A stretch of DNA of 64,000 nt, from NCBI GenBank assembly GCA_029260935.1, contig JAJDCJ010000008.1:3905-67904 (forward strand), given 5' to 3'. The translations under genes were made by a program, and so were the position numbers. The notes under the pieces were generated by a model. That model had not been told where the DNA came from. It saw only the letters and a list, made by a program, of their open reading frames with translations, and ran no database searches. The stretch is from Patescibacteria group bacterium. GTDB taxonomy: Bacteria > Patescibacteriota > Minisyncoccia > Phycocordibacterales > Phycocordibacteraceae. Position 1 is the stretch's first letter, and the number at the start of each line of letters is the position of its first letter. Of this stretch, positions 3-57,553 are shown one piece after another.

Positions 3-3000
3 GGAGGAAACGATTGGGATATTGTTGCGGGATTACCTGGAGCAAATAATACCAACTTCAGCATTTACGATGTTACTGATGCTGCAACTCGTTTGACTAT
101 AGACACTACTGGCAACGTCGGCATTGGCACTACCAGCCCCGGCACGCTCTTTGCCCTTGGCGACACCGGCGCAAACACCATCAACATTTCCCCAACTGCC
201 ACCTCTACGTTCGGAAGCGGTCTCAACATCCGCACTGGCTGTTTTGCGGTAAATGGAACCTGTGTTGGCGGTGGGGGAGGTAGTGGCACCCCAGGGGGCA
301 CAGACGGACAGGTGCAGTACAACAATGGCAGTGCCTTCGGCGGCGCGTCTGCACTTTTCTATGACGACATAAACAATCTCGTTGGCATTGGTACGACGAG
401 TCCTGGATATAAACTTGAAGTGTATGGCACTGGAACCACAGGTGGCATTTTGATTGACGATAGTAGCACCTCGTCTGCCGCTCCACTACTCGAGGTAAAA
501 GGACGACGTTCGGACGCGAATGTTTCGCAATCATTTTCTGCAGGACTGGCACTGGCAGGTTTACGCACTGACGCAACAGTCGGTAGCGCCAAACATCTCG
601 GAACAGTTTATTTCGGCGGTAACCACACCGATGGTGCCGATACAAATCTTCTCTATAGCGCCTCAATTTCCGGTATTTCTGAAGGGACTTTCAGTAACGG
701 AACAACAATGCCAACAGGGCTCGCGTTTTACACTGGCTCAACCGGCACGGCGCTCGGCACCGCAAACCAAACTTTTGGCACAGAACGTCTCCGTATTACT
801 AACGCCGGCAACGTCGGCATCGGGACGACGAGTCCATTGGATACGTTTGATGTTGCAGGAAACATTGGTCTTACCGGTGCGGTAACGCGCCAGATACTAT
901 TGCGTGGTGGAGCAGCGAGTTCTGTGCTTTCTATTGATTTTCCTGAAACGACAGCAACAGAGACAAACCAATTCCGATTGTTTCGTAGCACCACCCAAGC
1001 CGCCGCTTCTGCTCTCCAAATTTACAAAGGTGACAATACCACAAGTGTTCAGACAAACCTCTCTTCATTTGGAAACTCGTACATCAATGCATTAGCAGGC
1101 AACGTCGGCATCGGGACAACAAGTCCGGCAAATAGTTCAAAACTTGGCGTTGAGGGCAGTTTATATTTCACTCAAGGGTTTAAGTACCACGACACAGGAG
1201 TTGTTTCAGCAAGTATCGGCTCTGCGGCTTCAACGGATATCGGGCTTACATTTGACCACCCTACAACTGATTGGAACATTGGTATTGATAACAGTGATAG
1301 TCAGGCATTCAAAATTGCAAATGGTGCCATTGGGGTTGCCGATAAAGTAACTATCACCACCTCCGGCAACGTCGGCATCGGGACAACAAGTCCGTATAAA
1401 AAGCTCTCGGTTGATGGCGATGGAGTGTTTGCGTCTACCGGACCGGTTGAGCTTATACTCCATGCAGATACAGACAATGTTACGGAAACTGACAACCCGC
1501 GCATTATATTCAAACAAGACGGTACGGCTGTTGTTGGTCGGGTCGGGTACAAATCCGGCACAAACTCTTTGGAAATAATAAATGAATTTACTGACAAGCT
1601 TAGTTTAGGAACAAACAATGTCGACCGCCTTACCATAGACTCCGCCGGCAACGTCGGCATCGGTGATACAACTCCTGGAGTTACATTGGATGTAGAAGGA
1701 AATATACGTTCTCAAGGATCACTAGCAGGTCTTATATTCAACGATAGGTCGGCAGGCGCTGCATGGCAGTGGTATGCCTCAGGTGGTACCGCTAGGTTGT
1801 ACAACGGGTCCGATAAGTTTGCTATCGATTCCTCAGGCAACGTCGGGGTCGGCAATACAGCGCCTAATGCTCTTTTGCATATCGGAGCGAATATCAGCAG
1901 TGAGTTAGGTGTATTGGTAGCAAACCAGCAGACAGCACTCGCCACCACGCTCAATGCCAACCAGCCCGTGGCAACATTTTCAGCCGGTAACACCTTGAAT
2001 GATTTCAAAAATACGCTCTATGTTGTTCGGGATACTGCGGCGGGAACAGATTGGACAACGACCAGGTGGCACGATGCAATAAATGTAGACAACTCCTTCC
2101 TTACGCCGAGGACCGACACAAAAGTATGGTGGGAACGCGACCCGAACAACAACATCCAATCATGGGGCAATGCGGCAAGCACCTACCTCACCATCAACGC
2201 AGGCAAAGTCGGGATTGGCACGGTAAGTCCTTCACAAGCACTCATGGTGTCTGGCATCGCATACGCAACTAGTGGGTTTCGCGGTCCGAGTAATGTGACT
2301 GGTGCAACAGTTAGTGATGTCGTCGCATCAGGTTGTGATTTTGAAGGAAGCATGATAACCAGTGGTGGTATTGTTACTACATTCACCTCTGCTTCCAGCT
2401 GTGCAAGCGGGTTTTCAGACGAGCGACTGAAAACAAACATCACGTCGACAGAAGACGGGTACGGCCTTGATGAAATTCTCCAGTTGCAACCGATAACGTA
2501 CAACTGGCTTGGTTCCAGCTTTAGCACAACAACACAGCTCGGGTTTATTGCCCAGGACATTGAGTTAGTGTTCCCTGAACTTATAACGGATTTCGGTACA
2601 ACCACTATTACGCTTCCTGACGGCGCAACCACTACAATTTCACACACGCTCGGGTTGAAGTATGGTGTGTTGACCGTGCCATTAGTGAAAGCAGTACAGG
2701 AACTGTACGCGATGATGGTTGACGTGAAAGAGCAGGTGCTCGCGCTCGTTGACCGCGTTACTGGTGTTGAAAGCAGGGTGGCGAGCTTGGAAGCCGAGAA
2801 CGCACAGCTTACCGCGCGCCTCTCTTTGATCGAATCCGCCCTCGCTTCCGGTACTCTCACTCCAAATATCTTGACGTCCGACGTCAAGATATCGGACGCT
2901 GACACCGAAGCTCCCGTCATTACCATGAACGGCAACAACCCAGCAACCATTGCAGTGGGCGACACCTACGCCGACCTCGGCGCAAGCGTCACCGACAACA

Positions 3001-3401
3001 TTGATCAAAACATCGGCATCCACACCTTTATTAATGACGGGGAAGTGACCACCGTGACGCTCGACACCAGCACCTCTACCACCTACACCATTACCTACCG
3101 CGCCACCGACCAAGCAGGGAACATTGGAGAGGCAACCCGCACCGTGGTTGTTGGTAGAGAAGAAGCACCACTTCCTGAGACAGTCACAGAACCCACCGCA
3201 ACCACGACACCGTCTATCGTAGAGGAAGCGTCAGCACCCACCACACCACCTGTAGTTGTAGAAACGAGTGAAGAAACACCACATGCGTCATCCACACCTG
3301 AGGCACTACCTGCCCCTGTAACTGCCGTTGAAACACCACCTGTTGTAGAGGAAGAGTCAGCACCCACGACACCGCCTTTGGGGGAGGAAGCAGTTAATTA
3401 G
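3..3401 (+). CDS. Giant repeat-containing surface/tail-fibre-like protein, 5'-partial. The reading frame is open from window position 3; the track shows a TTG at 93. It carries about 9 GNVGIGTTSP repeats, then an S74 intramolecular chaperone autoprocessing domain (SDERLKTNI...YNW...GFIAQDIELVFPEL), a coiled coil, an Ig-like (DUF5011-like) module and a Pro/Thr-rich tail.
   Basis: Long ORF with no stop back to the window start in the same frame. Periodic 'xRLTIDxxGNVGIGTTSP' repeats. The motif S-D-E-R-L-K-T-N-I followed by 'LQPITYNW' and 'GFIAQDIELVFPELI' matches the Peptidase_S74/CIMCD consensus from memory. The C-terminal 'APVITMNGNNPATIAVGDTYADLGASVTD' resembles bacterial Ig-like DUF5011. 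Confidence 0.8.
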   Translation, partial: GGNDWDIVAGLPGANNTNFSIYDVTDAATRLTIDTTGNVGIGTTSPGTLFALGDTGANTINISPTATSTFGSGLNIRTGCFAVNGTCVGGGGGSGTPGGTDGQVQYNNGSAFGGASALFYDDINNLVGIGTTSPGYKLEVYGTGTTGGILIDDSSTSSAAPLLEVKGRRSDANVSQSFSAGLALAGLRTDATVGSAKHLGTVYFGGNHTDGADTNLLYSASISGISEGTFSNGTTMPTGLAFYTGSTGTALGTANQTFGTERLRITNAGNVGIGTTSPLDTFDVAGNIGLTGAVTRQILLRGGAASSVLSIDFPETTATETNQFRLFRSTTQAAASALQIYKGDNTTSVQTNLSSFGNSYINALAGNVGIGTTSPANSSKLGVEGSLYFTQGFKYHDTGVVSASIGSAASTDIGLTFDHPTTDWNIGIDNSDSQAFKIANGAIGVADKVTITTSGNVGIGTTSPYKKLSVDGDGVFASTGPVELILHADTDNVTETDNPRIIFKQDGTAVVGRVGYKSGTNSLEIINEFTDKLSLGTNNVDRLTIDSAGNVGIGDTTPGVTLDVEGNIRSQGSLAGLIFNDRSAGAAWQWYASGGTARLYNGSDKFAIDSSGNVGVGNTAPNALLHIGANISSELGVLVANQQTALATTLNANQPVATFSAGNTLNDFKNTLYVVRDTAAGTDWTTTRWHDAINVDNSFLTPRTDTKVWWERDPNNNIQSWGNAASTYLTINAGKVGIGTVSPSQALMVSGIAYATSGFRGPSNVTGATVSDVVASGCDFEGSMITSGGIVTTFTSASSCASGFSDERLKTNITSTEDGYGLDEILQLQPITYNWLGSSFSTTTQLGFIAQDIELVFPELITDFGTTTITLPDGATTTISHTLGLKYGVLTVPLVKAVQELYAMMVDVKEQVLALVDRVTGVESRVASLEAENAQLTARLSLIESALASGTLTPNILTSDVKISDADTEAPVITMNGNNPATIAVGDTYADLGASVTDNIDQNIGIHTFINDGEVTTVTLDTSTSTTYTITYRATDQAGNIGEATRTVVVGREEAPLPETVTEPTATTTPSIVEEASAPTTPPVVVETSEETPHASSTPEALPAPVTAVETPPVVEEESAPTTPPLGEEAVN
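2865..2891. repeat. REP-A palindromic element (atatcttGACGTCCGACGTCaagatat), in-frame inside ORF1 (encodes ...NILTSDVKISD...)
   Basis: Perfect 27-nt palindrome sharing the 13-nt core GACGTC-S-GACGTC with at least 7 other copies in the window. Confidence 0.8.
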
Positions 3402-3821: not shown

Positions 3822-6800
3822 ATGGATTATATATCTGAAAAAAATAAAGAACTAAAAAATGAAGGCACCGACGTTCTTGTCTCATCGTCTGACGCTGCAA
3901 AAGTGCTCGGGTGCACACCAGACCATATTGCCAGACTTTGCCGGAAAGGAGAGTTGCGGTGTGTTCGTATTGAAAAACGATGGAAAGTATACAGAGCTTC
4001 CTTAGATCACTACTCATTATTTGCTCAAGAGCGAGCTGAAGAACTCCAAAGAAAACTTTCTGAAGAAAGAAAACAAGAATACCAACAAAAGAATGGACAT
4101 AGAAAACACAGCACATATCGTCCGACATCACCTTCTTTTTCTTCACATCCATACCATACCAACAAAATTTATTTTATTAGTTTATACACAGTGTTTGTTT
4201 TTACAGCGCTTCCTCTTTCTTTGCTCGCCGCGCAAATTTTTAACTATGAAAGAATAAAAGAATTAGTGCAGGGGAACCCTGCACCACTTTTTGAAGAAAT
4301 AAAAACAGTTACTCACTCGGTACAACAAACTATTGCTTCAGCTACTCGCGCACCACTTGGAAGCGGACAGTATGATTCCTCTTCATATGTTGCACTCGCA
4401 CTCCAACCACAAGCACTATTCAGTGCATTCAGTGATTGGTTGTGGGGCGAACCACAACTATATACACCGCCTGCGCTTGGTGTACCGCGCCGGCAAGAAA
4501 CATCAAATAACACTACGACCAGCATTGAAAGAACCCCCACCACCGTCATCCGCAACGTCACCGAACAGGTCACGGTAACTGGTGTCAGCAACGACACACT
4601 CATCACCAGACTGCAGGAACTTGAAAACAAACTTCGCTCTGAGATTCTGGTGTACTCTGCTCGTTCAGACCGCGGGAGCTCTGGAAACTATCGTGCCATT
4701 TCTCTCACCAATGCCATTCATCAGCTCACCAACACCACTATTACAACCCCAACTGTTTCAGGTGGTTCTTTCACTGACGGATCTTTTTCAGGCACATTCA
4801 GCGGACCTATCTCAGGAGGAACAGGAAGCTTCTCAACACTCACTGCATCAGGTGCAACGACACTTGACTCAACCTTGAGCGCCGCAACCACTACCCTTTC
4901 AGGCGCACTCACGGTTTCCGGTACCGCAACATCCTCTATCGCCGGACAGTTAGGACTTTCGTTTGCCCCAACTGAAGCCCACACGTTTGGCGCATGGGCA
5001 ACGGGTGTGGCAAGCAGTAGTGCGGCAAACGCCTCCCTCTACATCAACCCAAGCACCGCCACCGCAGACAGCAACCTCTTCGGTGTGGCAGTGAATGGCG
5101 CAGTCAAGTTTCTTGTTGATGCCGAGGGTGACATATTCGCAAACTCACTTACCGCATCCGGCGGCGTCACTCTCGCAACCACCACGGCTTCCACCTTTAC
5201 CGTGGAAGGCGACACCACTCTTGGCGATGCTGCCACCGACAATCTCACCATCACCGCCCGTCTCATCTCCGACCTCATTCCCAAGACGGCAAATACGTAC
5301 GACCTCGGTACCACCACCCTCGGCTTCCGCAGTGGTTTCTTCAACACCTCGCTTCTCATTGGCAACACCGCAACCACAACCATTCGTGGTGACCAAGCGA
5401 CCTCAACCTTTGCAAGCGGTATTGAAGCATCTAGGCAAATCACCGCGCCATTCTTTCAGGCAACGAGTACCTCCGCCACCTCAACCTTTGCGGGTGATGT
5501 CACCGTCTCTGGAAAAACCACCCTCGGCACTGCCTCCACTACACAAATCAGTGCCACATACGCCTCATCAACAAATGCATTCTTTGGTTCACTCTCGGTT
5601 GGCTCTCTCACCGGATTCCTCAAAGCAACCGCGGGATCAGTCGCCACCTCACTCATTGACCTGACGTCTGACGTCTCTGGTATACTCGGCACCACCTTCG
5701 GCGGCACCGGCTGGGGCACCATCACCGCAAACACACTCCTTGTGGGAAACGGCACTAACAAATTGGCGACCACCACTGCCGGCACCAACGGACAGGTACT
5801 CGCACTCGTTGGGGGCACGCCAAGCTGGGTGGCAACCACCACGTTCTCAAGCGGGCTCACATACACGGGAGGGAATGTGACAGCGGACCTCGGCACCAGC
5901 GTTGACTTAACGAGTGAAGTCACGGGAACACTCCCGGTGAGCAATGGCGGAACGGGGGCGACGACGTTTACCAACAATCGCCTTCTCACAGGTAACAGCA
6001 CCAGCGCACTCGTTGACGAAGCAAACCTCACCTTTGACGGTTCACTTCTTACTGTTACAGGCAACGCATCCACCACCCAACTTGGCTCAACAGGTTCTTC
6101 ATACTTTGCAACGAGCGGCGGCAACGTCGGTATTGGCACCACAACGCCAAATGCAAAATTGGCCATAAATACCGGTGTTTCCGGACAGCTCGTGCTGTGG
6201 AAGGGTTCGGGTGCACAATCCGGTATCGCATCAGGGCAGGTTGGTGGAGCAAATACGCTGGAATTTACTACAGATGACGCCGCCGGTGGTCAGGCAACGA
6301 GGTTATTACTGAGAGGGACCACCGCCGATGCCGATACTGAATTTTATAGAGGGGCACGAGGTGCGGAAATTCTTACTTTGTTTATAGAGGGGTCAAACGG
6401 GAATGTCGGTATTGGCAGTACCACTCCATTTGCAACGCTTGCAGTCAATCCTATTGCCGGCGACACCAACCAGTTTGTGGTGGGGAGTTCAACCGCAACC
6501 AGTTTTATTATTAACAGTGCCGGCAACGTGGGAGTTGGAGTGACAGACCCGGACAAGACACTTGAAGTGTTTGAAACGGTTGCCGATAGTCAGCTGAAAC
6601 TCTCCTACGACGCCACGCGCTACACCACCTTCCAAGTTACTTCCGTGGGCGACCTGGTGATAGACGCGCAGGGAGGCGATGCGTCGCTTTTGGATGAAAA
6701 CCTCTTTGTGTGTGCCGGCGGTTCCTGCCCTGCCGGCACACCAACGGGCACAGGAAACTTTATAGTTGAGCGTGGTATCGGTGTGGCGTCAGCCACACCG

Positions 6801-7157
6801 ATAACCGGTATTTCGGTGGGTGCCGACAGTGCCATTGTAACGACTGAAAAAAATGTTGCCGACGCCGCTCCTATTACCATTGACTGGGACAACGGCAACC
6901 AACAGCTCATCCGCCTTGCGGCAAGCCGCACCGTGAACTTCTCTAACGTTAAAGCGGGGCAGACACTCCGCTTAACGGTGTGCACGACAGCAAGTTCCCG
7001 ATTGGTCACCTGGGGTTCTACTATTCGCTGGTCGGGTGGCACGGCGCCCACGCAAACGGCAACCGCCAACAAGTGCGATGTGTTCTCGTTCCTTGGTACC
7101 CTTGGTCACACGGGAAGTGCAGTGCTAATTTTCGGCGCGTCAACGCTTAATTTTTAG
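3822..7157 (+). CDS. Giant Thr/Ser/Gly-rich surface protein with an N-terminal HTH (excisionase/HTH_17-like) domain and one TM helix, then about 1000 aa of repetitive extracellular sequence including GNVGIGTTTP-type repeats
   Basis: 1111-aa ORF. The N-terminus 'AAKVLGCTPDHIARLCRKGELRCVRIEKRWKVY' is HTH_17-like. A hydrophobic segment 'IYFISLYTVFVFTALPLSLLAAQIF' follows. Low-complexity T/S/G/A repeats and 'SGGNVGIGTTTPNAKLAIN', 'NGNVGIGSTTPFATLAVN' and 'AGNVGVGVTDPDKTLEV' motifs are shared with ORF1. Confidence 0.75.
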   Translation: MDYISEKNKELKNEGTDVLVSSSDAAKVLGCTPDHIARLCRKGELRCVRIEKRWKVYRASLDHYSLFAQERAEELQRKLSEERKQEYQQKNGHRKHSTYRPTSPSFSSHPYHTNKIYFISLYTVFVFTALPLSLLAAQIFNYERIKELVQGNPAPLFEEIKTVTHSVQQTIASATRAPLGSGQYDSSSYVALALQPQALFSAFSDWLWGEPQLYTPPALGVPRRQETSNNTTTSIERTPTTVIRNVTEQVTVTGVSNDTLITRLQELENKLRSEILVYSARSDRGSSGNYRAISLTNAIHQLTNTTITTPTVSGGSFTDGSFSGTFSGPISGGTGSFSTLTASGATTLDSTLSAATTTLSGALTVSGTATSSIAGQLGLSFAPTEAHTFGAWATGVASSSAANASLYINPSTATADSNLFGVAVNGAVKFLVDAEGDIFANSLTASGGVTLATTTASTFTVEGDTTLGDAATDNLTITARLISDLIPKTANTYDLGTTTLGFRSGFFNTSLLIGNTATTTIRGDQATSTFASGIEASRQITAPFFQATSTSATSTFAGDVTVSGKTTLGTASTTQISATYASSTNAFFGSLSVGSLTGFLKATAGSVATSLIDLTSDVSGILGTTFGGTGWGTITANTLLVGNGTNKLATTTAGTNGQVLALVGGTPSWVATTTFSSGLTYTGGNVTADLGTSVDLTSEVTGTLPVSNGGTGATTFTNNRLLTGNSTSALVDEANLTFDGSLLTVTGNASTTQLGSTGSSYFATSGGNVGIGTTTPNAKLAINTGVSGQLVLWKGSGAQSGIASGQVGGANTLEFTTDDAAGGQATRLLLRGTTADADTEFYRGARGAEILTLFIEGSNGNVGIGSTTPFATLAVNPIAGDTNQFVVGSSTATSFIINSAGNVGVGVTDPDKTLEVFETVADSQLKLSYDATRYTTFQVTSVGDLVIDAQGGDASLLDENLFVCAGGSCPAGTPTGTGNFIVERGIGVASATPITGISVGADSAIVTTEKNVADAAPITIDWDNGNQQLIRLAASRTVNFSNVKAGQTLRLTVCTTASSRLVTWGSTIRWSGGTAPTQTATANKCDVFSFLGTLGHTGSAVLIFGASTLNF

Positions 7158-8887: not shown

Positions 8888-10090
8888 ATGCTCAAAAAAT
8901 TCGCCTCATTCTTTCTCTACAACAACCTTGTGCCGATTATCTTCGGGGTTCTCTTTCTTGGCGCAGGCGCAACATTTGCCGCCTCACCCGAAGCGCGCGA
9001 CGTGGTGTTTAGCGCGCAGGCGGTGGTAGCTTCGGTTGATAATGCATACATCATTTCCGCTGACATCGACGCCTATCCGTTTGACATTCAAATTACAGAC
9101 ATTGCCGAAAGTGACACACACTATTTCATCACCTACACACTGGCAACTATTGATCTTGCAGAAGGGGTATGGCGCGACGTAGTAAAGGCGCGCACGCTTG
9201 AAGTTGAAAAAGCGGTGTTGGCGGGGCGCGACTTGGGTGTGTATGCGGCGCGCCAGCTTTCCGAAACAAGAGATGCCGAACATGCGCGCCTCGTAGAAAC
9301 GCAGAAGATAGAAAAGGACCTAGGCAAGCAACAAAAAATAGTGGCAACGGTGTACGGCGGATTGGTAGGGAGGATGCTTGAACCCAGCGAGGAGGTGTTT
9401 ACAGGATACACACCGGTTGTTTCAGAACCAATTCCTACAGGGGTGGTTGCAGGTGATGGTGGGGGGAGTACAGGTGCGGGCACTGCAGTACCCGCACCTG
9501 ACCCGCGCGCCGCGGAAGCGGCGCGCCTTGCCGCGCTTGAAGCACGCATTTCTTCGCTTGAATCCGCCCTCGCTTCCGGCAGCACCTCTGCCACCCCCAC
9601 TGATGGACGTCGGACGTCCATCAGTGGGGGTGGGGACACCGAAGCTCCCGTCATTACCGTGAACGGCAATAACCCAGCGACCATCAATGTGGGCGACACC
9701 TACGCCGACCTCGGCGCAAGCGTCACCGACAACATTGATCAAAACATCGGCATCCACACCTTTGTTGACGGCAACGAAGTAACTACCGTAGCTTTGGATA
9801 CCAGCACCTCAACCACATACACTATTGTATATAAAGCAACTGACACTTCAGGAAATGTGGGAGAGGCAACACGCACCGTCGTTGTGGGAGGAGCTCAACC
9901 AGGAGCGGAACCACCAACCGTGGTACCTGAAACGCCACCGGCTTCACCTACTGCAACTTCAACACCCGCAACCCCTCCTCCTGAACCTGCCGCAACGTCC
10001 ACCCCTCCGACGAGCCCTCTTCCAGCTGTAGAAACAACTCCACCACCACCCGCAACCATAACCGGCACCACCACGCCAGAATCAATCTAA
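8888..10090 (+). CDS. Secreted protein with a signal peptide, a coiled coil, an Ig-like (DUF5011-like) module and a Pro/Thr-rich tail. The C-terminal cassette is near-identical to that of ORF1.
   Basis: 400 aa. N-terminal hydrophobic 'LVPIIFGVLFLGAGATFA'. The segment 'SLESALASG...DTEAPVITVNGNNPATINVGDTYADLGASVTDNIDQNIGIHTF...EATRTVVVG' shares roughly 90% nucleotide identity with 2830-3160. Confidence 0.75.
   Translation: MLKKFASFFLYNNLVPIIFGVLFLGAGATFAASPEARDVVFSAQAVVASVDNAYIISADIDAYPFDIQITDIAESDTHYFITYTLATIDLAEGVWRDVVKARTLEVEKAVLAGRDLGVYAARQLSETRDAEHARLVETQKIEKDLGKQQKIVATVYGGLVGRMLEPSEEVFTGYTPVVSEPIPTGVVAGDGGGSTGAGTAVPAPDPRAAEAARLAALEARISSLESALASGSTSATPTDGRRTSISGGGDTEAPVITVNGNNPATINVGDTYADLGASVTDNIDQNIGIHTFVDGNEVTTVALDTSTSTTYTIVYKATDTSGNVGEATRTVVVGGAQPGAEPPTVVPETPPASPTATSTPATPPPEPAATSTPPTSPLPAVETTPPPPATITGTTTPESI
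9595..9629. repeat. REP-A palindromic element (ccccactgatgGACGTCGGACGTCcatcagtgggg), in-frame inside CDS 8888-10090
   Basis: Perfect 35-nt palindrome. Same core as the other REP-A copies. Confidence 0.8.
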
Positions 10091-10104: not shown

Positions 10105-10129
10105 TTTGCGGACGTCGGACGTCCGCAAA
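10105..10129. repeat. REP-A palindromic element (tttgcgGACGTCGGACGTCcgcaaa)
   Basis: Perfect palindrome. Intergenic, 3' of RAYT1. Confidence 0.8.
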
Positions 10130-10159
10130 CCTCGCATTTCCGCCCTTCTTCACCCCTCA

Positions 10160-10204
10160 CACCCAAATAATTATGGACGTCGGACGTCCATAATTATTTG
10201 GGTG
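10160..10204. repeat. REP-A palindromic element with long arms (cacccaaataattatgGACGTCGGACGTCcataattatttgggtg)
   Basis: Perfect 45-nt palindrome immediately 3' of the RAYT1 stop. Confidence 0.8.
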
Positions 10205-10215
10205 TCTGTTGTTAT

Positions 10216-10899
10216 TTATTCTAAAGTAACTCCCGCAACCTCATCAACACTAAACTCTTTTAATGTCTTTGAAACTGATTTTTTATACCCTCCTTCACCA
10301 CCAAAAAACTCAAGAAAAAACTTTCGGTCAGTTACCAACGGAAAGTTTTTCTCTCCTAAATAATCAAGGTGACTGCTCCAGCGATACGTGTTCAGAAAAT
10401 CCAACGCCTTTTTCGGGTGTGCGATGCACTGTTTTCGCCATTCCGGCACTTTTAAATCAAGCGGATTAAAGTGAATGTAGTAGGGGATATAAAGGAAGTG
10501 CGCATCACGCTCAATCAGCACCTTCTTATATTTGCCTTGCCACAATGCCCCACTCCGGTCATATTTCTCATTAAAATACTTTGAGTAGCCCCCATTGAGT
10601 TTTTTCATAAAAAGCGAAATACCATTTTCTACAACCGGCGATAACAGCAGGTGATAGTGGTTCGGCATCAAACAGAAAAAATGCACCTGCACCAACCTCT
10701 CCCGGCTCCTCTCATGATAAGTCTGCGGACGTCGGACGTCCGCAGACGGCTCTGTTGCGCGCCGTAATTGATAATAGGGAAGTACATTGCGGGTATCATT
10801 GAATTCATATATATCGTGAATGAACCGCAAATAATCTCTCTCATCAAGAAAAGTAGTGCGTTTATCAACACCTCTGTTGAGTACATGAAAGAAATCCAT
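10216..10899 (-). CDS. REP-associated tyrosine transposase (RAYT; IS200/IS605 TnpA-like HuH Y1 transposase). The track ORF extends to 10995 by reading through the 5' REP; the likely start is the ATG at 10899.
   Basis: HuH motif 'LMPNHYHLLLSP'. C-terminal Y...Q region 'YSKYFNEKYDRSGALWQGKY'. Length about 228 aa. Flanked by palindromes. Confidence 0.8.
   Translation of the reverse strand: MDFFHVLNRGVDKRTTFLDERDYLRFIHDIYEFNDTRNVLPYYQLRRATEPSADVRRPQTYHERSRERLVQVHFFCLMPNHYHLLLSPVVENGISLFMKKLNGGYSKYFNEKYDRSGALWQGKYKKVLIERDAHFLYIPYYIHFNPLDLKVPEWRKQCIAHPKKALDFLNTYRWSSHLDYLGEKNFPLVTDRKFFLEFFGGEGGYKKSVSKTLKEFSVDEVAGVTLE
10721..10747. repeat. REP-A palindromic element (gtctgcgGACGTCGGACGTCcgcagac) inserted in-frame inside the RAYT1 coding sequence (encodes ..PSADVRRPQT..)
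   Basis: 27-nt perfect palindrome. Its length is a multiple of 3 and the ORF continues through it. Confidence 0.8.
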
Positions 10900-10925
10900 A
10901 CGGCAAGTATATCTCTCTCTTACAG

Positions 10926-10952
10926 ATCTGCGGACGTCGGACGTCCGCAGAT
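10926..10952. repeat. REP-A palindromic element (atctgcgGACGTCGGACGTCcgcagat), 5' of RAYT1
   Basis: Perfect palindrome. Confidence 0.8.
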
Positions 10953-22162: not shown

Positions 22163-22368
22163 TCGCTCACATGAACGAATCAGAACCGCGTATCCAGTCG
22201 TTGGCAAAAGAAAAGAAACGGCATTTCTGTAATGAATGTGATTCACACTGCAACTGGGTTATATGCAAGTGCCTCACACGTAATATTAATCGACACAAAA
22301 TACAAGATTTTTATAAATGCCCATGCCGCGGGTGCGAGAGGCACTAAGAGACACCCCACCTTCTGCCC

Positions 22369-22403
22369 CCCCCATTACGGAAGTCTGACTTCCGTAATGG
22401 GGG
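22369..22403. repeat. REP2 palindromic element (cccccATTACGGAAGTCtGACTTCCGTAATggggg)
   Basis: Perfect 35-nt palindrome, one of 4 copies in the window. Confidence 0.8.
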
Positions 22404-22414
22404 CAAGAACCAAT

Positions 22415-22437
22415 ATATGGACGTCCGACGTCCATAT
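22415..22437. repeat. REP-A palindromic element (atatgGACGTCCGACGTCcatat), 12 nt downstream of a REP2 copy
   Basis: Perfect palindrome with the same core. Confidence 0.8.
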
Positions 22438-24270: not shown

Positions 24271-24287
24271 CTACCTCAGTACTCTAT

Positions 24288-24335
24288 TTGTGCAACACTC
24301 GGTGTTGCACAAACCGAGTGTTGCACAAATTTGTT
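24288..24335. repeat. REP-B palindromic cluster 3' of RAYT2 (ttgtGCAACACTCGGTGTTGCacaa, then a second nested copy GTGTTGCACAAA + ccgagtg stem)
   Basis: 25-nt perfect palindrome followed by a direct repeat of GTGTTGCACAAA and a nested 7-bp stem. Confidence 0.7.
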
Positions 24336-24353: not shown

Positions 24354-25007
24354 TTAGTCAATGACAAACGATTCCTTTGCAGGATTTGTTTGTACATATT
24401 CCTTATATGCTTTGGTGTCTTTAAATTGATCCAAGAGTATAGATGTGTCTATGAGCGGGTGAAGTCGAGTGTCTCCCAGGTAGTCGCGATAGCTGGACCA
24501 TGTAAAGGAGTGTTCTTTCCCTCGAACACCTGCAATTTCTCGAGGGTTTTTATGAATGTAGGCCGAGACATGTAGCAACTGCTCATTATTTTCTATATGC
24601 ACAGCTTTAAATGGCCCCTGAAAAAGATGGCCGACATGTTTGTATTTAGTGTTGAAGTACTTAGTATAAGCATTTAAAATACGTTGCATGTAACGCGAGA
24701 TGCCCCCATCTTCCCTCTCACCTACAAGCCAATGTATGTGATTAGGCATAAGTGCAAAGGTAAGTAGTGAAATATATCTTTTTTCTGTAATGACTTTGTA
24801 CGTGTCATCAATAACATTCCAATGTTTGTTAATTCTGAACGAAGTGGCGTGGCGAGAAATATTTTTAAAATCAATTGGAGAAACAAGATGTGTCATCAAA
24901 AATAGGAAGCGGAAGCGATCACTGTCGTCATAGAAAATATCCTGTTTGTTGTTGCCGCGAACCATCAGGTGGTAGTACTCTCCTGGTGCAAAATCAATAT
25001 TCCTCAT
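24354..25007 (-). CDS. Second REP-associated tyrosine transposase (RAYT; IS200/IS605 TnpA-like). The track ORF extends to 25055 through the 5' palindrome; the likely start is the ATG at 25007.
   Basis: HuH motif 'LMPNHIHWLVGE'. 'YYHLMVRGNNKQDIF' N-terminal block. C-terminal 'YIHKNP...WSSYRDY'. Flanked by REP-B palindromes on both sides. Confidence 0.75.
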   Translation of the reverse strand: MRNIDFAPGEYYHLMVRGNNKQDIFYDDSDRFRFLFLMTHLVSPIDFKNISRHATSFRINKHWNVIDDTYKVITEKRYISLLTFALMPNHIHWLVGEREDGGISRYMQRILNAYTKYFNTKYKHVGHLFQGPFKAVHIENNEQLLHVSAYIHKNPREIAGVRGKEHSFTWSSYRDYLGDTRLHPLIDTSILLDQFKDTKAYKEYVQTNPAKESFVID

Positions 25008-25026
25008 ATGTTTAATCCTACCATCG

Positions 25027-25059
25027 TAAAGTGTGCAACACTCGGTGTTGCACACTTTA
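25027..25059. repeat. REP-B palindromic element 5' of RAYT2 (taaagtGTGCAACACTCGGTGTTGCACacttta)
   Basis: Perfect 33-nt palindrome with the same core as 24288-24312. Confidence 0.8.
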
Positions 25060-25113
25060 CCTATATACAGTTGAGGTTTTGATTATGAGGGACGTTGCTT
25101 AAAACGGCTTGCT

Positions 25114-30729: not shown

Positions 30730-30756
30730 GAAATATGGACACGGCGTGTCCATATT
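30730..30756. repeat. REP-like palindrome, variant core (aaatatGGACACGgCGTGTCCatattt)
   Basis: Perfect 27-nt palindrome, intergenic between pheS-like and gyrB. Same ATATGGAC...GTCCATAT arm style as the REP-A copy at 22415. Confidence 0.7.
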
Positions 30757-30887
30757 TTATCAAAGGGGAAAAGTGAAGGAAAAAGAAGAAACATACCACT
30801 AAAAATTACTGAAAAACCACTGTAGAAAACAGAGATTTTTGCTCTATAGAGTGATATAATAAAGGGGCGCACAGAGCGTTATTTTTT

Positions 30888-33800
30888 ATGCCAAAGAAAA
30901 CCCCTACAAAAGCAGTAAAACCTAATAAAACAGCCACCAAAGCGAAAAAAGGCCCCTCATATGGAGCCGAACAAATTACCGTTCTTGAGGGTCTTGAGCC
31001 GGTACGTAAGCGCCCTGGAATGTACATAGGTACCACAGGTCCTGATGGTCTCCATCACCTCATTTGGGAGGTGTTTGATAACTCGCGTGACGAGGCAATG
31101 GGTGGCTTTGCCGACACTATTGAAGTGGCACTGCTTCCAGGAAATAAAATTCGCATCGTTGATAATGGGCGAGGTATTCCTGTTGATATACATAAACAAA
31201 CAAAAGTTTCAGCACTTGAAACCATCATGACCACACTGCACGCCGGCGGTAAGTTTGGTGGAGACGAGAGTGGATACAAAGTATCCGGAGGACTTCATGG
31301 TGTTGGTGTGTCGGTTGTAAATGCACTTTCAGTGTATACAAAAGTTGAAGTCCACAAAGACGGCGGTCACTACATACAGGAATACAGTCGTGGAAAACCA
31401 AAAGCAAAAGTAAAAAAAATCGGTAGCACAAACTTTGAAGGTACTGTTGTGGTGTTTGAAGCAGACCAGGAGATTTTCAAAGAGATTGTTTTTGACTGGA
31501 ATAAAATAGTTGCCCACCTACGCCAGCAGGCATACTTAGTGAAAGGCACACGTATTGGCATCTATGATGCCCGTGAATACGCTGGAAAAACTGACCTTGA
31601 AGACGGTGTCTATATAAGAGATATGGAGGTAGCAATCCCTTCGCAGACATTTTATTTTGAACAAGGGCTTCGCTCTCTTGTTGCGTTCAATAACCGTTTC
31701 CAAAAACCGATTCATAAAAATATCTTCTATGTTGAAAAAGAAGAAGATGGCGTTACCGTTGAAGTCGCACTTCAATATGCTGACGATATTTCTCCGCGTC
31801 TGATTGGTTTTGCAAACAATATCTATAACTCAGAGGGCGGAACTCATATCACTGGTTTTAAAACAGCACTCACCAGAACCATAAACACCTATGCGCGTAA
31901 AAATAACGTAGTAAAAGAAAGTGATGAAAACTTTACCGGAGACGATGTTCTTGAGGGTATTACTGCAGTTGTGTCGGTGAAAATGCCAGAGGTTCAGTTT
32001 GAGGGGCAGACCAAGGGAAAGTTGGGAAGTGTGGAGGCGCGTGGTGCAGTGGAAACCGTATTCGGCGAGGCATTTTCCGACTTTCTTGAAACACATCCTG
32101 ACGAGGCAAAATCAATTGCATCAAAAACTCTTTTGGCGCTCAAAGCACGCAAAGCAGCAAAGGCCGCTAAAGATTCAGTACTGAGAAAAGGTGCACTTGA
32201 CGGTATGACTCTGCCGGGTAAATTGGCCGACTGCCAAAGCAAAAGCGCTGAAGAGTCCGAGTTGTTTATCGTAGAGGGAGACTCAGCTGGCGGGTGTTTT
32301 GATGGGAACACTAAAGTGGCACTTACAGACGGACGCAACCTCACTTTTAAAGAACTTGTTGTAGAAGATAAAGATGGAAAACAAAATTACTGCTATACCA
32401 TTGATGATGGTGATGTTGGTGTTGCACCAATTCTCAATCCACGTATTACGAAACATAATGCTGAAGTGTTAAAAGTTACACTTGATTCAGGAGAAGAAAT
32501 AATTTGTACTCCCGATCATCGTTTTATGCTTCGTGACCAATCGTATCAACAAGCGCAACAGTTGACCTCGGAAGATTCTCTTATGCCACTTCGTCGTCAA
32601 CTTTCACGACTCGGAAGACGTATCACCATCAAAGGGTATGAATTAGTTTATACACCCGGAGCTCACCAATGGATTTTTACACATCTTCTCGGTGACCGTT
32701 TTAATATGAAACATAATATCTATACAAAAACGGACAATACCGCAGTACACCATAAAGATTTCAATAAACTCAACAATAATCCGGATAACTTGGTGCGCCT
32801 TGATAAACAAGAGCATATACTCCTTCATACACAATCATTACATCGAACACTTCACAGTGAAGCTTCAAAAGAGGCGGCGCGTCGTACACACAAGACACGG
32901 GAGTATCGAGAAAAGATTCGAACCATTATGAGTACGTCACGCATGCGTACACTACTCAGTCTGCGAGCAAAAAAACAATGGGAAAACCTGGAGTATAAAG
33001 AGTTTATGAAGCAGAAATTTTCTGAATTCTATAACACACACCCAGAATATAGGACTGAGAACAATGCAAATTTAAACGCAGCGCAGAAGTTGCATTGGTC
33101 CAAAGCGGAAAACCGCAAAGCTCAGTCAAAACGAGTAACTGAATTTTTCGTCCAAAATCCAGAGGTTCGTAGTGCGCTTTGTGCCGAAGCGCGTACACAG
33201 TGGGATAACGCTGATTTGCGAGCATGGCGCGCTGAAACCACCAAAAAACAATGGACATCAGAATTTCGTGCAAACCGAAAAGTCGCATACAATAAAACAT
33301 ATCTCACCAAAGCACTCAAAGCATTTAACGATATATGGAAAAAAACGAAGAACATCGATGTCGCCGCATACAATCGTATTCGAAAAGAGACTAATGATCG
33401 CTCACTCATTCGTCATGACACTATTTTGAAACGGTTCTTTAACAACGACACTAAGCGCTTTGAAGAAGCAGTTGTTAATTTCAATCACCGAATTAAACAT
33501 ATAGAGAAGGTACATGAGCGAATGGACGTATATGACTTGCAGGTAGCAGGTACTCACAACTTCGCACTTGCCAGTGGCATCTTTGTACACAACTCATCAA
33601 AACAGGGACGTGATCGCCGTACGCAAGCAATTTTACCGCTCCGTGGAAAGATTTTAAACGTAGAGCGTGCACGCCTTGACCGTATGCTTGCGTCAAATGA
33701 AATTAAAGCGCTTGTGGTAGCACTGGGGACTGCAATAGGGGATTTATTTAATCTAGAAAAGCTACGCTACCACAAAGTAATTATCGCGACTGACGCCGAC

Positions 33801-34298
33801 GTTGATGGTGCTCATATCCGTACGCTTCTGCTCACACTCTTTTACCGATACTTTAAAGAAATGATTGAAGGTGGATTTGTATACATTGCGCAACCTCCTC
33901 TATACAAAATTAAAAAAGGGAAAGATGTGACGTACGCGTATACTGATGATGAAAAAGCAGATCTTATCGGCACAGACATTGAAATTACAGAAGAAAACGA
34001 CGACACTGTTTTAGATGAAGATGAGGACGAAAACGATAGAGAAGAAGATGTACAGTCAAAGAAATCAAAACCGAAAACAAAAAAAGTCACGATTCAACGG
34101 TACAAAGGTCTTGGTGAAATGAACCCAGACGAGCTGTGGGAAACCACCATGGACCCAGCACGGCGGATTTTAAAACAAGTAACTATTGAGGACGCACAAG
34201 ACGCCGACCGTGTATTTGATATTTTAATGGGTACCGACGTTCCCGCTCGTAAATCGTTTATTCAAAGTAACGCCAAAACTGCAAAACTAGACATTTAG
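30888..34298 (+). CDS. gyrB: DNA gyrase subunit B, interrupted by a 433-aa intein
   Basis: GHKL ATPase N-terminus, TOPRIM 'EGDSAGG|C...' interrupted by the intein, C-terminal 'QRYKGLGEMNP'. Total 1136 aa versus about 650-700 for a typical GyrB. Confidence 0.9.
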   Translation: MPKKTPTKAVKPNKTATKAKKGPSYGAEQITVLEGLEPVRKRPGMYIGTTGPDGLHHLIWEVFDNSRDEAMGGFADTIEVALLPGNKIRIVDNGRGIPVDIHKQTKVSALETIMTTLHAGGKFGGDESGYKVSGGLHGVGVSVVNALSVYTKVEVHKDGGHYIQEYSRGKPKAKVKKIGSTNFEGTVVVFEADQEIFKEIVFDWNKIVAHLRQQAYLVKGTRIGIYDAREYAGKTDLEDGVYIRDMEVAIPSQTFYFEQGLRSLVAFNNRFQKPIHKNIFYVEKEEDGVTVEVALQYADDISPRLIGFANNIYNSEGGTHITGFKTALTRTINTYARKNNVVKESDENFTGDDVLEGITAVVSVKMPEVQFEGQTKGKLGSVEARGAVETVFGEAFSDFLETHPDEAKSIASKTLLALKARKAAKAAKDSVLRKGALDGMTLPGKLADCQSKSAEESELFIVEGDSAGGCFDGNTKVALTDGRNLTFKELVVEDKDGKQNYCYTIDDGDVGVAPILNPRITKHNAEVLKVTLDSGEEIICTPDHRFMLRDQSYQQAQQLTSEDSLMPLRRQLSRLGRRITIKGYELVYTPGAHQWIFTHLLGDRFNMKHNIYTKTDNTAVHHKDFNKLNNNPDNLVRLDKQEHILLHTQSLHRTLHSEASKEAARRTHKTREYREKIRTIMSTSRMRTLLSLRAKKQWENLEYKEFMKQKFSEFYNTHPEYRTENNANLNAAQKLHWSKAENRKAQSKRVTEFFVQNPEVRSALCAEARTQWDNADLRAWRAETTKKQWTSEFRANRKVAYNKTYLTKALKAFNDIWKKTKNIDVAAYNRIRKETNDRSLIRHDTILKRFFNNDTKRFEEAVVNFNHRIKHIEKVHERMDVYDLQVAGTHNFALASGIFVHNSSKQGRDRRTQAILPLRGKILNVERARLDRMLASNEIKALVVALGTAIGDLFNLEKLRYHKVIIATDADVDGAHIRTLLLTLFYRYFKEMIEGGFVYIAQPPLYKIKKGKDVTYAYTDDEKADLIGTDIEITEENDDTVLDEDEDENDREEDVQSKKSKPKTKKVTIQRYKGLGEMNPDELWETTMDPARRILKQVTIEDAQDADRVFDILMGTDVPARKSFIQSNAKTAKLDI
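32295..33593 (+). mobile_element. GyrB intein with an HNH-type homing endonuclease domain, inserted in the TOPRIM EGDSAGG^S site
   Basis: Block A 'CFDGNTKVAL' directly after GDSAGG. Block B 'ICTPDHRF'. HNH-like 'HHKDFNKLNNNPDNLVRLDKQEHILLH'. Blocks F/G 'VYDLQVAGTHNFALASGIFVHN' followed by +1 Ser and the resumed extein 'SKQGRDRRTQAILPLRGKILNV'. Confidence 0.85.
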
Positions 34299-39955: not shown

Positions 39956-39994
39956 CCCCCCCATTACGGAAGTCTGACTTCCGTAATGGGGGGG
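39956..39994. repeat. REP2 palindromic element (7-C/G arms), followed at 40009-40022 by a REP-A core
   Basis: Perfect palindrome ccccccc-ATTACGGAAGTCtGACTTCCGTAAT-ggggggg. Confidence 0.8.
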
Positions 39995-40008
39995 GTTGGG
40001 TCAATGAA

Positions 40009-40022
40009 GGACGTCCGACGTC
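40009..40022. repeat. REP-A core (GGACGTCCGACGTC) with imperfect arms
   Basis: Exact core match; arms tgaag...cttca with a bulge. Confidence 0.6.
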
Positions 40023-40114
40023 GCTATTTACTTCATATACCCTGCTTCAAACAGAGCCCTTGACAAAATACAGTATAGGAGTATACTAGTAGAGTAATAA
40101 TTAAATATAAATAT

Positions 40115-40402: not shown

Positions 40403-40420
40403 AGAGTCTCGTTGCTCAAC

Positions 40421-40450
40421 AAAAAAACCACCCTCTCGGTGGTTTTTTTG
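40421..40450. terminator. Bidirectional rho-independent terminator (aaaaaaaCCACCctctcGGTGGttttttt) between convergent genes
   Basis: GC-rich stem flanked by an A-run and a T-run. Confidence 0.7.
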
Positions 40451-40469
40451 TTTTAAGTAAGAAGCGCAC

Positions 40470-42221: not shown

Positions 42222-42279
42222 AATATATAAAATAATAGCACAACCACCTTATATAGTGATATCTTCTCAGTACCCGACC

Positions 42280-42316
42280 CCCCCCATTACGGAAGTCTGA
42301 CTTCCGTAATGGGGGG
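42280..42316. repeat. REP2 palindromic element, followed at 42331-42344 by a degenerate REP-A core (GGACGCCCAACGTC)
   Basis: Perfect palindrome with 6-C/G arms. The downstream 29 nt match the sequence following the 39956 copy. Confidence 0.8.
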
Positions 42317-42664
42317 TAAGAGTCAATGAAGGACGCCCAACGTCACTATGTTTGGAATAACAAGAAATACTGAAAACAGTGTTGGGTTAAAAAACACTCA
42401 GGATTATTCAGGATATGATATAGAGAAGATATGATTATTCCTTCTTTTAGGGAAAAGAGGGCTGGGAAAGAGTCTGATAAAAATTATACTGACCTTACGG
42501 TACTCTCAGCTCTTTCTATTTCGCTCATAACTTCATATGAAGATTTTGAAGACTGGGAAATTGAACGAAGGAACATCTGTTCTGATCAATGTGACAACGC
42601 TGGTTTTCGGACATTCAGTATGGATTGGCTCTTATGTGTCATTCGCTGTATGAGGGGGAATTAA

Positions 42665-52170: not shown

Positions 52171-52310
52171 CGAGGCGCTAGGTGACAGAAAAATTAGGAC
52201 ATCCGATGTCCTAATATGACAAGGCGAGGCGCTAGGTAACAGGTGACACACATAAGAAAAATTAGGACATCCGATGTCCTAATATACCAGAGGCCCGGGC
52301 CTCTGGTATA
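52171..52310. repeat. Intergenic repeat block: a two-unit tandem repeat (gcgaggcgctaggtRacag...aaaaATTAGGACATCcGATGTCCTAATat), each unit with a 23-nt palindrome, followed by a 28-nt perfect palindrome TATACCAGAGGCCCGGGCCTCTGGTATA
   Basis: Palindromes at 52193-52215, 52261-52283 and 52283-52310. Direct repeats at about 52171-52190 and 52223-52243. Confidence 0.75.
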
Positions 52311-52377
52311 TTGCTATTAAAACTAAACCCTCAACTCTAAAACAAACCTCAAAAAAAGAGTCTGTATAATAGGGTGT

Positions 52378-54242: not shown

Positions 54243-54331
54243 TATCCTTTCTCCAAAATGTTTTCTATTCTTTTCTTCTCACAAAACTGCCAACTCTAAA
54301 AACTATCAAGAGCAGTCTTGTGAATGTGAAA

Positions 54332-54380
54332 GAAACCCCTCCCATTACGGAAGTCTGACTTCCGTAATGGGAGGGGTTTC
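54332..54380. repeat. REP2 palindromic element with extended arms (gaaacccctccc-ATTACGGAAGTCtGACTTCCGTAAT-gggaggggtttc)
   Basis: Perfect 49-nt palindrome between convergent genes. Confidence 0.8.
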
Positions 54381-54555
54381 TCAGCGTTTTATTTCACTGT
54401 GATTTCCACAGTTTTTTCGCTAGGAGTGTCACGCCTTCTCTTTCTTTGTAGCAAAACTTGATATATCAAGTTTTGCTTTAATGTTATTTACTGGAGGCAC
54501 TGGTCGTGAATAAACAAGGTTAAGTTAGAGTAAAAAACATCTATACAAGTAGTTT

Positions 54556-57473: not shown

Positions 57474-57495
57474 TCAAACAAAGAAATTCAGAATT

Positions 57496-57536
57496 AAAAC
57501 GTCAAAACCCCCTACCTAAGGGGGTTTTGACGTTTT
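57496..57536. terminator. Very stable hairpin (AAAACGTCAAAACCCCCT-acct-AAGGGGGTTTTGACGTTTT): bidirectional terminator/attenuator between the KH gene and trmD
   Basis: About 18-bp perfect stem with A/T-run arms. It overlaps the start of the upstream-extended trmD ORF. Confidence 0.55.
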
Positions 57537-57553
57537 ACTGTATATACTGCATT

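Follow-up and report, generated by a model that had tools for sequence, protein, structure and literature searches.

Repetitive extragenic palindromic sequences (REPs) and their associated tyrosine transposases (RAYTs, also TnpA(REP)) are known chiefly from Proteobacteria, with descriptions from a few further phyla, and are debated as long-lived, vertically inherited genomic replicators. In the REPtron the REPs stand on either side of their TnpA(REP)/RAYT gene (E. coli yafM type, subclass 2.2; Pseudomonas, subclass 2.5), an arrangement reportedly worked out by Nunvar (2010), Bertels and Rainey (2011), Ton-Hoang (2012) and Messing (2012; structure 4ER8). Populations of REPs and of REP doublets forming hairpins (REPINs) are said, following Bertels and Rainey, to number from tens to hundreds in a genome and to lie mostly outside genes. 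Intragenic REPs were reportedly treated by Di Nocera (2013), and Rickettsia palindromic elements (RPE) are palindromic elements lying in frame in coding genes. Here we describe a locus of this kind in a 64 000-nt stretch (the window) of contig JAJDCJ010000008.1 from a Patescibacteria group bacterium: a RAYT-like HUH nuclease gene of the Y1 type (10216-10899) and the short palindromes that accompany it. The REPtron-like system is real; it is a REP/RAYT partnership of the known kind in unusual form, widespread in Patescibacteria.

Class-2 TnpA(REP) signatures, including Y---NP and W[QE]/FQ, were tabulated by Quentin et al. 2018 (PMC6006769), who accept atypical REPs for subclasses 2.6 and 3. For subclass 2.4 (Bertels group 4; Cyanobacteria/Bacteroidetes) the same authors report in-frame REPs within tnpA(REP), between HuH and Y, and "double foot" REPs (PMC6006769). 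Full-text literature searches returned no paper linking REPs or RAYTs to bacteria of the Candidate Phyla Radiation (CPR) beyond passing KEGG annotation, in line with the original prediction that such a family had not been described in this phylum.

The RAYT-like gene and its palindromes

The open reading frame (ORF) at 10216-10899 had been predicted to encode a RAYT of 228 aa with the motif NHYHLL; position, strand and motif were correct, and the product has 227 aa plus stop. It was matched by the Pfam model Y1_Tnp (PF01797) with 40.5 bits (cut-off 23; residues 60-143). The best NCBIfam model was REP_Tyr_transpos (equivalog NF047646; 43 bits, cut-off 80), and the IS200 model NF033573 scored 13 bits (cut-off 55). 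The predicted assignment is thus upheld by Y1_Tnp and by the identity of the best NCBIfam model, and not by the RAYT cut-off.

The HuH motif is H81-Y82-H83 and the putative catalytic tyrosine is Y141 in YIHFNP; W120-Q121 and S175-S176 are also present. In an alignment of 22 homologues H81-Y82-H83, Y141-I142-H143-x-N145 and S175-S176 were invariant, which agrees with the HuH and C-terminal Tyr region expected beforehand, and the W-Q motif was kept as WQ, or as FQ in some. Judged from its sequence, the protein therefore carries both features of a Y1 enzyme, a putative metal-binding HuH motif and a single Tyr on a C-terminal helix; it also has a C-terminal extension of 80 aa. Its motifs are those of class-2 TnpA(REP)/RAYT proteins, subclass 2.1 being nearest by motifs and length.

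The AlphaFold (AF2) model (mean predicted local distance difference test score (pLDDT) 62 for the whole chain, 70-89 in the core) shows the order strand-helix-[loop]-strand-strand(HuH)-helix-strand, with residues 46-62 as a low-confidence linker (pLDDT <50). When the model was compared with the PDB by using Foldseek, 30 of the 30 best matches were Y1 transposases (ISDra2, IS608, IS200; target-normalised template modelling (TM) score 0.5-0.63), and the E. coli RAYT 4ER8 ranked 25th, with 16% identity in the structural alignment. A PDB sequence search with the family profile returned ISDra2 TnpA alone, as a weak match, and not 4ER8. By its predicted structure the protein shares the fold of IS200/IS608 TnpA. 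Database searching gave 3531 relatives, the best 120 at 56-72% identity, and the named entries among these 120 were Parcubacteria, Patescibacteria or Paceibacterota; the family of more than 3500 members is already annotated "transposase".

The cognate palindromes (Table 1) have the core GGACGTC-S-GACGTCC, with G or C as the unpaired centre base. As single-stranded DNA the core folds into a triloop hairpin and is not strictly a perfect palindrome; the palindromes predicted on both sides of the gene were all recovered, their strict perfection excepted. The predicted dispersed copies were likewise found, and the core is over-represented in the window, as had been supposed: with up to two mismatches the 15-mer core gave 17 strand-matches against 0.11 expected. 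In 100 dinucleotide shuffles this number was never reached. The window also contains 18 perfect palindromes whose arms measure at least 8 nt, vs 0-5 in Markov shuffles. Folding of each GGACGTC copy as single-stranded DNA gave a hairpin with a 3-nt loop (z -5 to -11 vs shuffles); the upstream copy formed a 12-bp triloop hairpin (-14.3 kcal/mol, z = -7.2), and the first downstream copy reached -23.9 kcal/mol (z = -10.8). The in-frame internal copy, which the original prediction had missed together with three more palindrome families and a second Y1 gene, encodes with its adjoining bases S-A-D-V-R-R-P-Q (residues 53-60), inside the linker 46-62. The copies at 2866-2892 and 9591-9633 occupy homologous linker positions of two paralogues; their flanks are up to 100% identical, their arms differ and the centre base is flipped. 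GTAG or GTGG was not found at the palindrome feet in the window, so the palindromes had rightly been called REPs as regards the REPtron arrangement, and not as regards the GT[AG]G tag of canonical REPs. A sigma-70 promoter scan around the gene gave no signal above shuffled expectation. A further GACGTC-T-GACGTC with T centre and 6-nt arms, at 5663-5675 inside gene 3822-7157, is a decayed copy or a chance match.

Table 1. RAYT-like genes and palindromes of the window (positions in nt; S, G or C).
Feature	Position	Strand	Remarks
RAYT-like HUH/Y1 nuclease gene	10216-10899	(-)	227 aa plus stop; profile, motif and fold matches
Upstream cognate palindrome, ATCTGCGGACGTC-S-GACGTCCGCAGAT	10926-10952	(.)	13-nt arms; ends 26 nt before ATG
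Internal cognate palindrome	10721-10747	(.)	13-nt arms; in frame within RAYT-like gene
First downstream cognate palindrome	10159-10205	(.)	23-nt arms; 10 nt past stop codon
Second downstream cognate palindrome	10105-10129	(.)	12-nt arms; palindrome search and hairpin fold
Dispersed copy	9591-9633	(.)	21-nt arms; in frame in surface-protein gene 8888-10090, in linker preceding Ig-like domain
Dispersed copy	2866-2892	(.)	13-nt arms, core GACGTC-C-GACGTC; in frame in gene 93-3401
Dispersed intergenic copy	22415-22437	(.)	11-nt arms; composite with GGAAGTC-T-GACTTCC palindrome 12 nt upstream
Dispersed intergenic copy	40009-40023	(.)	perfect arms of 6 nt only; same composite with GGAAGTC-T-GACTTCC
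Degenerate copy, GACGCCCAACGTC	~42332-42344	(.)	same composite with GGAAGTC-T-GACTTCC
Second RAYT-like Y1 gene	24354-25055	(-)	233-aa ORF; motifs NHIH, YIHKNP, WSS
Upstream hairpin of second gene, GTAAAGTGTGCAACAC-TCG-GTGTTGCACACTTTAC	25026-25060	(.)	overlaps first 30 nt of ORF; ends 19 nt before ATG 25006
Downstream hairpin of second gene	24287-24313	(.)	core as in 25026-25060; preceded by truncated flipped half-copy
Second family, CCCCCATTACGGAAGTC-T-GACTTCCGTAATGGGGG (GGAAGTC-T-GACTTCC), 4 copies	22369-22403, 39956-39994, 42280-42316, 54331-54381	(.)	
Third family, ATTAGGACATC-C-GATGTCCTAAT (GGACATC-C-GATGTCC), 2 copies	52193-52215, twin 52261-52283	(.)	
Fourth family, AAATATGGACACG-G-CGTGTCCATATTT (GGACACG-G-CGTGTCC), 1 copy	30731-30757	(.)	just upstream of gyrB

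Homologous loci, hairpin variation and a proposed mechanism

Homologous loci (L numbers) were collected from one genome per species (80 loci with a homologue out of more than 555), and five loci from close relatives were added. Arrangements were counted over the 78 loci, mostly Paceibacterota, with at least 150 nt on both sides of the gene, and distribution was read from 64 kb of the window's own genome and 20-kb pieces of the others. A hairpin lies within 200 nt of the gene in 68 of the 78 loci; the inner arm is identical upstream and downstream in 42, an internal copy matches a flank in 35, and 24 show the complete arrangement of flanking hairpins with the same inner arm on both sides and a matching internal copy. 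The median distance is 40 nt from the hairpin to the ATG and 4 nt from the stop codon to the hairpin. Internal copies are centred on codons 44-64 in 34 of 37 cases and on codons 146-158, between HuH and Y, in the other three; several homologues have none. The linker that holds the internal copy measures 66-150 nt and is weakly correlated in length with its hairpin (r = 0.38, slope 0.46). Given this correlation and the many linkers with decayed remnants, simple insertion of a hairpin into a linker of fixed length is not the whole story.

The core varies by lineage and is constant within a locus (GGACATC-S-GATGTCC, GGAGGTT-S-AACCTCC, TGACACC-G-GGTGTCA, CGAAGTC-S-GACTTCG, GAGGGAC-T-GTCCCTC), and most lineage cores lack GACGTC. 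Where one genome has two RAYT genes (L038/L041, L052/L069), each has its own core. Across lineages the variable positions lie within the scaffold AAWWTATnGAnGTC-S-GACnTCnATAWWTT, and in the position profile of the whole family the foot is symmetric and AT-rich, without a GT[AG]G tag. Homologues that encode DIGCP in place of DVGRP carry GACATC-G-GATGTC, a change on both sides that leaves the pairing intact; it is therefore the DNA, not the peptide, that is maintained. On inspection of the locus listing the centre base showed no consistent orientation relative to the gene, and an RNA-strand-specific model was dropped for this reason. The units are single perfect palindromes with a centre of 1-3 nt and do not take the form of REPIN inverted doublets with a spacer. 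Nested or doubled palindromes, in which two inverted cores enclose a third core or a short loop and so make a longer, REPIN-like hairpin, were seen in L062 (244-302), L034 (1134-1162, 1849-1883) and L076 (483-512, 1242-1273).

The highly regular spacing before the ATG and after the stop codon would also be expected if the palindromes were mainly regulatory elements of the host or of the gene itself and the Y1 protein their domesticated binder. The copy before the ATG would then be an operator or a hairpin of the 5'-untranslated region (UTR), the internal copy a roadblock or RNA-cleavage site, and the copy after the stop codon a terminator or 3' stabiliser; the three at-gene copies would autoregulate the gene, and for other genes the dispersed ones would provide terminators or stabilisers. 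The palindrome at 10159-10205 has a terminator-like character: it lies between convergent genes, also downstream of 8888-10090, and is followed by a T-rich run, with a terminator-like score on the + strand. The chromosomal position is kept in very small genomes, and E. coli REPs are reported as 3'-UTR elements, both of which suit such a role. As the main explanation it is nevertheless unlikely: copies also sit in frame within genes that are unrelated, the centre base has no consistent orientation, several homologues do without an internal copy, T runs are absent after most hairpins, and HuH and Tyr are invariant, although a protein that only binds could do without them. Nor does regulation by itself account for the homogenisation of arms within genomes, described below. 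A regulatory role is compatible with a REPtron-like explanation, and the two may well coexist.

Within the 64 kb there is one copy of the gene and one 29% identical paralogue, and a few genomes have two divergent copies. The RAYT-like gene adjoins gap-rpiB-rpe in the window and in L081, L084, L016 and L045. A gene with the same hairpin on both sides recalls the subterminal hairpins of IS200/IS605 elements, and the gene and the hairpins on its two sides might move together as an autonomous insertion sequence of the IS200 type, which would have left the solitary palindromes as remnants or miniature derivatives. The two copies in some genomes (L017/L018, L013/L023) would agree with this, as would the relatives in Nitrospirota/Thermodesulfovibrionia (L048, L053, L054), which suggest horizontal transfer. 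We regard such an element as highly improbable, since no near-identical duplicate is present in the window (the hairpins of the second gene are also different), relatives whose proteins are 70% identical keep the synteny beside gap, the tyrosine motif reads Y---NP and not Y---Q, and the IS200 model remains far under its cut-off. Moreover, no tnpB was called among the genes beside close relatives, the neighbours in the window being gap and a surface-protein gene, and plasmid and phage searches gave relatives at 24-30% identity only. The homologues in L048, L053 and L054 are 43-48% identical to the window's RAYT and have flanking hairpins of like build (CGAGGTT-S-AACCTCG, CGAAGTT-G-AACTTCG); these bins reflect either horizontal transfer or mis-binned CPR contigs.

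Cognate hairpins occur at 3.1 per kb within 300 nt of the gene vs about 0.03 per kb beyond 1 kb, a density about 100 times higher next to the gene than farther away. Distant cognate copies were found in 14 loci besides the window. Even at a distance from the gene hairpins are far more frequent than chance predicts, and the observed 0.03-0.06 per kb, extrapolated, suggests tens of copies per Mb, not hundreds. In-frame copies in linkers of large proteins, as in the window, are similar in L081. It is scarcely credible that the palindromes are unrelated to the Y1 gene and near it by chance, products of restriction-modification or repair bias (as with highly iterated palindromes) or of general template switching. 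The core does contain two hexamers GACGTC, a 6-bp palindromic site, and template switching would account for outward growth of the arms without a dedicated enzyme; yet 42 of 78 loci from different lineages are bracketed by the same lineage-specific core, the density is raised about 100-fold next to the gene, and the cores vary widely, most of them without GACGTC.

Counted outwards from the loop, the arm shared by an internal copy and a flank copy of the same locus averages 10.8 nt, vs 6.5 nt between loci with the same core. The closest relatives (proteins 70-74% identical) all keep GACGTC-S-GACGTC, and their arms are genome-specific: in the window and four close relatives the upstream and internal copies have in common TCTGCG (window), AAATGAGA (L081), ATGGTC (L082), ATATCTT (L084) and AATGAAG (L085). 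The copies at one gene have therefore repeatedly been made alike, and these sequence comparisons indicate that copies within a genome undergo concerted evolution. The arm variant ATATCTT-GACGTC occurs at non-orthologous sites in the window (2866-2892), L081 and L084, and ATCTGC-GGACGTC in several metagenome contigs; it is thus the entire hairpin with its arms that behaves as a propagating variant. Only 7 stretches, none from the same genome, turned up when metagenomes were scanned for the variant TGCGGACGTCSGACGTCCGCA specific to the window.

Beyond the part shared within a genome the arms are unique and perfectly paired over 2-14 nt, far above chance. In the internal palindrome of L082 the right arm consists of the conserved L-V-K codons of the following strand, and the complementarity must therefore have been created on the left arm. 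Either template switching at hairpins or nicking at the foot and fill-in may produce growth of this type. The view that outer arms are pre-existing hairpins with a core inserted in the loop was rejected in general, the L082 arm being made of conserved codons.

Taken together, the locus is probably a REPtron-like unit, that is, a single-copy, vertically kept RAYT-like Y1 HUH nuclease gene with short palindromes fitted to it. This is supported by the anatomy of the locus, fold and motifs of the protein, lineage-specific cores, sharing of arms within genomes and a chromosomal position that is kept. By analogy with what IS200/IS608 TnpA and E. coli TnpA(REP) are known to do chemically, we infer catalysis on a single-stranded substrate, a cis preference, a direction of transfer and a mode of growth. 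While the DNA is single stranded, each palindrome would fold into a hairpin with a 3-nt loop. The RAYT-like enzyme would read the loop-proximal 6-7 bp, the scaffold GAnGTC-S-GACnTC on its AT-rich foot, and would cut and rejoin at the palindrome through a tyrosine-DNA intermediate, thereby seeding copies at new sites and replacing old ones with the currently dominant variant. Copies may cluster at the gene because the enzyme probably acts mostly in cis; they would accumulate upstream of the ATG (at about 40 nt), within a few nt downstream of the stop codon and at one codon-tolerant spot within the gene, the predicted disordered loop between helix A and the strand before the HuH strand. Away from the gene, copies would persist between genes and where surface proteins have flexible linkers. 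Outward growth of the hairpins would follow from the copying of one flank as the other's complement.

Several points weigh against this explanation. Neither enzymatic activity nor a cleavage site nor an empty site was seen, the NCBIfam RAYT cut-off was missed (43 vs 80 bits), and the canonical GT[AG]G guide tetranucleotide is absent. At the thresholds used, 16 of the 78 loci have a hairpin on one side only or none; dispersal is argued from few copies per locus, the density away from the gene being low, and the flank-copying step rests mainly on one clear case (L082). The regular placement before the ATG and after the stop codon fits a regulatory role equally well, and the closest match in motifs and length is subclass 2.1, for which no REPs were found (PMC6006769).

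A stronger version, which we put forward tentatively and would sooner doubt than expect, is a nuclease with its own substrate inside its reading frame that overwrites the three hairpins at its gene with a master variant, grows palindromes by foot nick and fill-in into unique or coding sequence, writes, as a side effect, new linkers into surface proteins and belongs to a self-maintaining, vertically inherited partnership of hairpin and enzyme common to the Paceibacterota. If this were true, repeats would be propagated here in another way than by the guide tetranucleotide of the known REP/RAYT systems.

Second gene, further palindromes and host

The second RAYT-like gene encodes a protein 29% identical to that of 10216-10899 (Pfam Y1_Tnp 44.8 bits; NCBIfam NF047646 48.9 bits, under the cut-off of 80). 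Its ORF opens with a GTG at 25055 that falls inside the upstream hairpin. With the 5' end at the GTG thus overlapped by the hairpin, ATG 25006 is the more probable start, which would give a gene of about 24354-25006. Its hairpin, GTGCAACAC-TCG-GTGTTGCAC, has two copies only in the window, and the truncated half-copy before the downstream one, with flipped loop, reads TTTGTGCAACACTCGG.

Three further palindrome families of the window share the build of the GGACGTC family, and their cores are cognate to RAYT homologues of other genomes. For GGAAGTC-T-GACTTCC there is no cognate gene in the window; the core sits 2.5 kb from a RAYT homologue in L039, which is itself flanked by the fourth-family core. 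The third-family core is cognate to DIGCP-encoding homologues and lies around or in the RAYT gene of L001, L016 and L020. A composite recurs at three intergenic sites (22367-22437, 39956-40027, 42279-42349): a palindrome of 35-51 nt, CCCCCCCATTACGGAAGTC-T-GACTTCCGTAATGGGGGGG, is followed after about 12-21 nt by a GGACGTC-C-GACGTC copy, similar to a bacterial interspersed mosaic element (BIME) of two repeat types; at 54331-54381 the first palindrome stands alone. The third family consists of two identical 31-nt copies of AGAAAAATTAGGACATC-C-GATGTCCTAATAT, 68 nt apart, and the twin at 52261-52283 overlaps a 32-nt even-centred perfect palindrome (52281-52312) with the halves AATATACCAGAGGCCC and GGGCCTCTGGTATATT. 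Other long perfect hairpins outside the GGAnnTC families lie at 57495-57537, 40418-40452, 54450-54477 and 6776-6803; among them are one 19-bp stem with loop ACCTA, one 28-nt even palindrome and one terminator-like A/T-rich stem of 15 bp.

The gene at 10216-10899 is neighboured by gap and by a surface-protein gene, one of three on the + strand that encode large Thr/Ser/Pro-rich, probable surface proteins (93-3401, 3822-7157, 8888-10090). The first two carry many G-N-V-G-I-G-T-T-S-P repeats. The 3' parts of 93-3401 and 8888-10090 are paralogous (2901-3159 vs 9635-9893, 82% identical), and in both genes the palindrome sits in the linker just ahead of the paralogous domain. Inside ORF 37117-39555 a run of GGN/TGT codons (37287-37380) encodes Gly/Cys-rich imperfect tandem repeats.

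The ORF 30888-34298 (+) encodes DNA gyrase subunit B (GyrB) interrupted by an intein (precomputed Pfam domains include PF14890); its reading as rpoB was rejected. Intein-free GyrB relatives of about 700 aa are 80-85% identical over the matching part; the named relatives of the window's GyrB belong to Paceibacterota lineages such as Taylorbacteria, Kaiserbacteria and Nomurabacteria. With the names of RAYT homologues and of loci, these best matches place the host in the Patescibacteria/Paceibacterota (CPR), and the Patescibacteria-like origin that had been proposed holds.

Comparison with known systems

The family constitutes a large natural data set for the co-evolution of nuclease and hairpin, because specificity positions vary on a conserved scaffold. 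It provides a case of a substrate within an enzyme's own reading frame and possibly a source of linker variation in surface proteins of host-attached organisms. For annotators, such "transposase" calls in CPR genomes do not denote ordinary insertion sequences.

As in the REPtron, a Y1 HUH protein with Y---NP motif, encoded in what may be about one copy per genome, is accompanied by a hairpin repeat on both sides of its gene that is also dispersed; each gene has its repeat family, and gene and repeats co-evolve. Unlike the REPtron proteins, that of the window is 16% identical to 4ER8 and under the NCBIfam RAYT cut-off. Its repeats, without GT[AG]G, are perfect palindromes with an unpaired centre of 1-3 nt, conserved at the loop, with an AT-rich symmetric foot and unique outer arms; there is no obvious REPIN doublet with spacer, the density is far lower and the host belongs to the Patescibacteria.

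Subclass 2.4 has in common with this locus symmetric cognate repeats that lie in frame inside the nuclease gene, in a peripheral variable region. In the window, however, the internal copy precedes HuH (residues 53-60), as in 34 of 37 loci; the motifs are NHYH and YIHFNP instead of NH[IFV]H and YIxNNP, and the REPs of subclass 2.4 carry GT[AG]G feet. Compared by motifs only, subclass 2.1 (Bertels group 1; "TIRYT"; table in PMC6006769) is alike in NH[YF]H, W[EQ] or FQ, a Y[IV]HLNP-like motif, the S-S tail and a length of about 230-240 aa. It has only terminal inverted repeats, GGGG[AT][CG]A[CG], and no REP-like hairpins (PMC6006769), whereas hairpins flank most genes of the window type.

The TnpA proteins of IS200/IS605 elements (IS608, ISDra2) are the best structural matches to the predicted fold, have hairpins at both gene ends and may, by analogy, share the chemistry of single-strand cutting and rejoining. 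They differ in that the window protein has Y---NP, not Y---Q, and an 80-aa C-terminal extension, and that its gene is probably single copy, in conserved synteny, with no tnpB called and the same hairpin on both sides, solitary hairpins outnumbering genes. Like intragenic REPs and RPE, the copies at 2866-2892, 9591-9633 and in L081 lie in frame in linkers of large proteins; RPE are longer and the others GTAG/CGTC-tagged, whereas the window copies are perfect palindromes of 23-47 nt cognate to a RAYT-like gene. The GGACGTC family of the window has two in-frame copies in other genes and one in the RAYT-like gene. The same nuclease-hairpin partnership, in a form of its own, extends over much of the Patescibacteria, with their tightly packed genomes of about 1 Mb.

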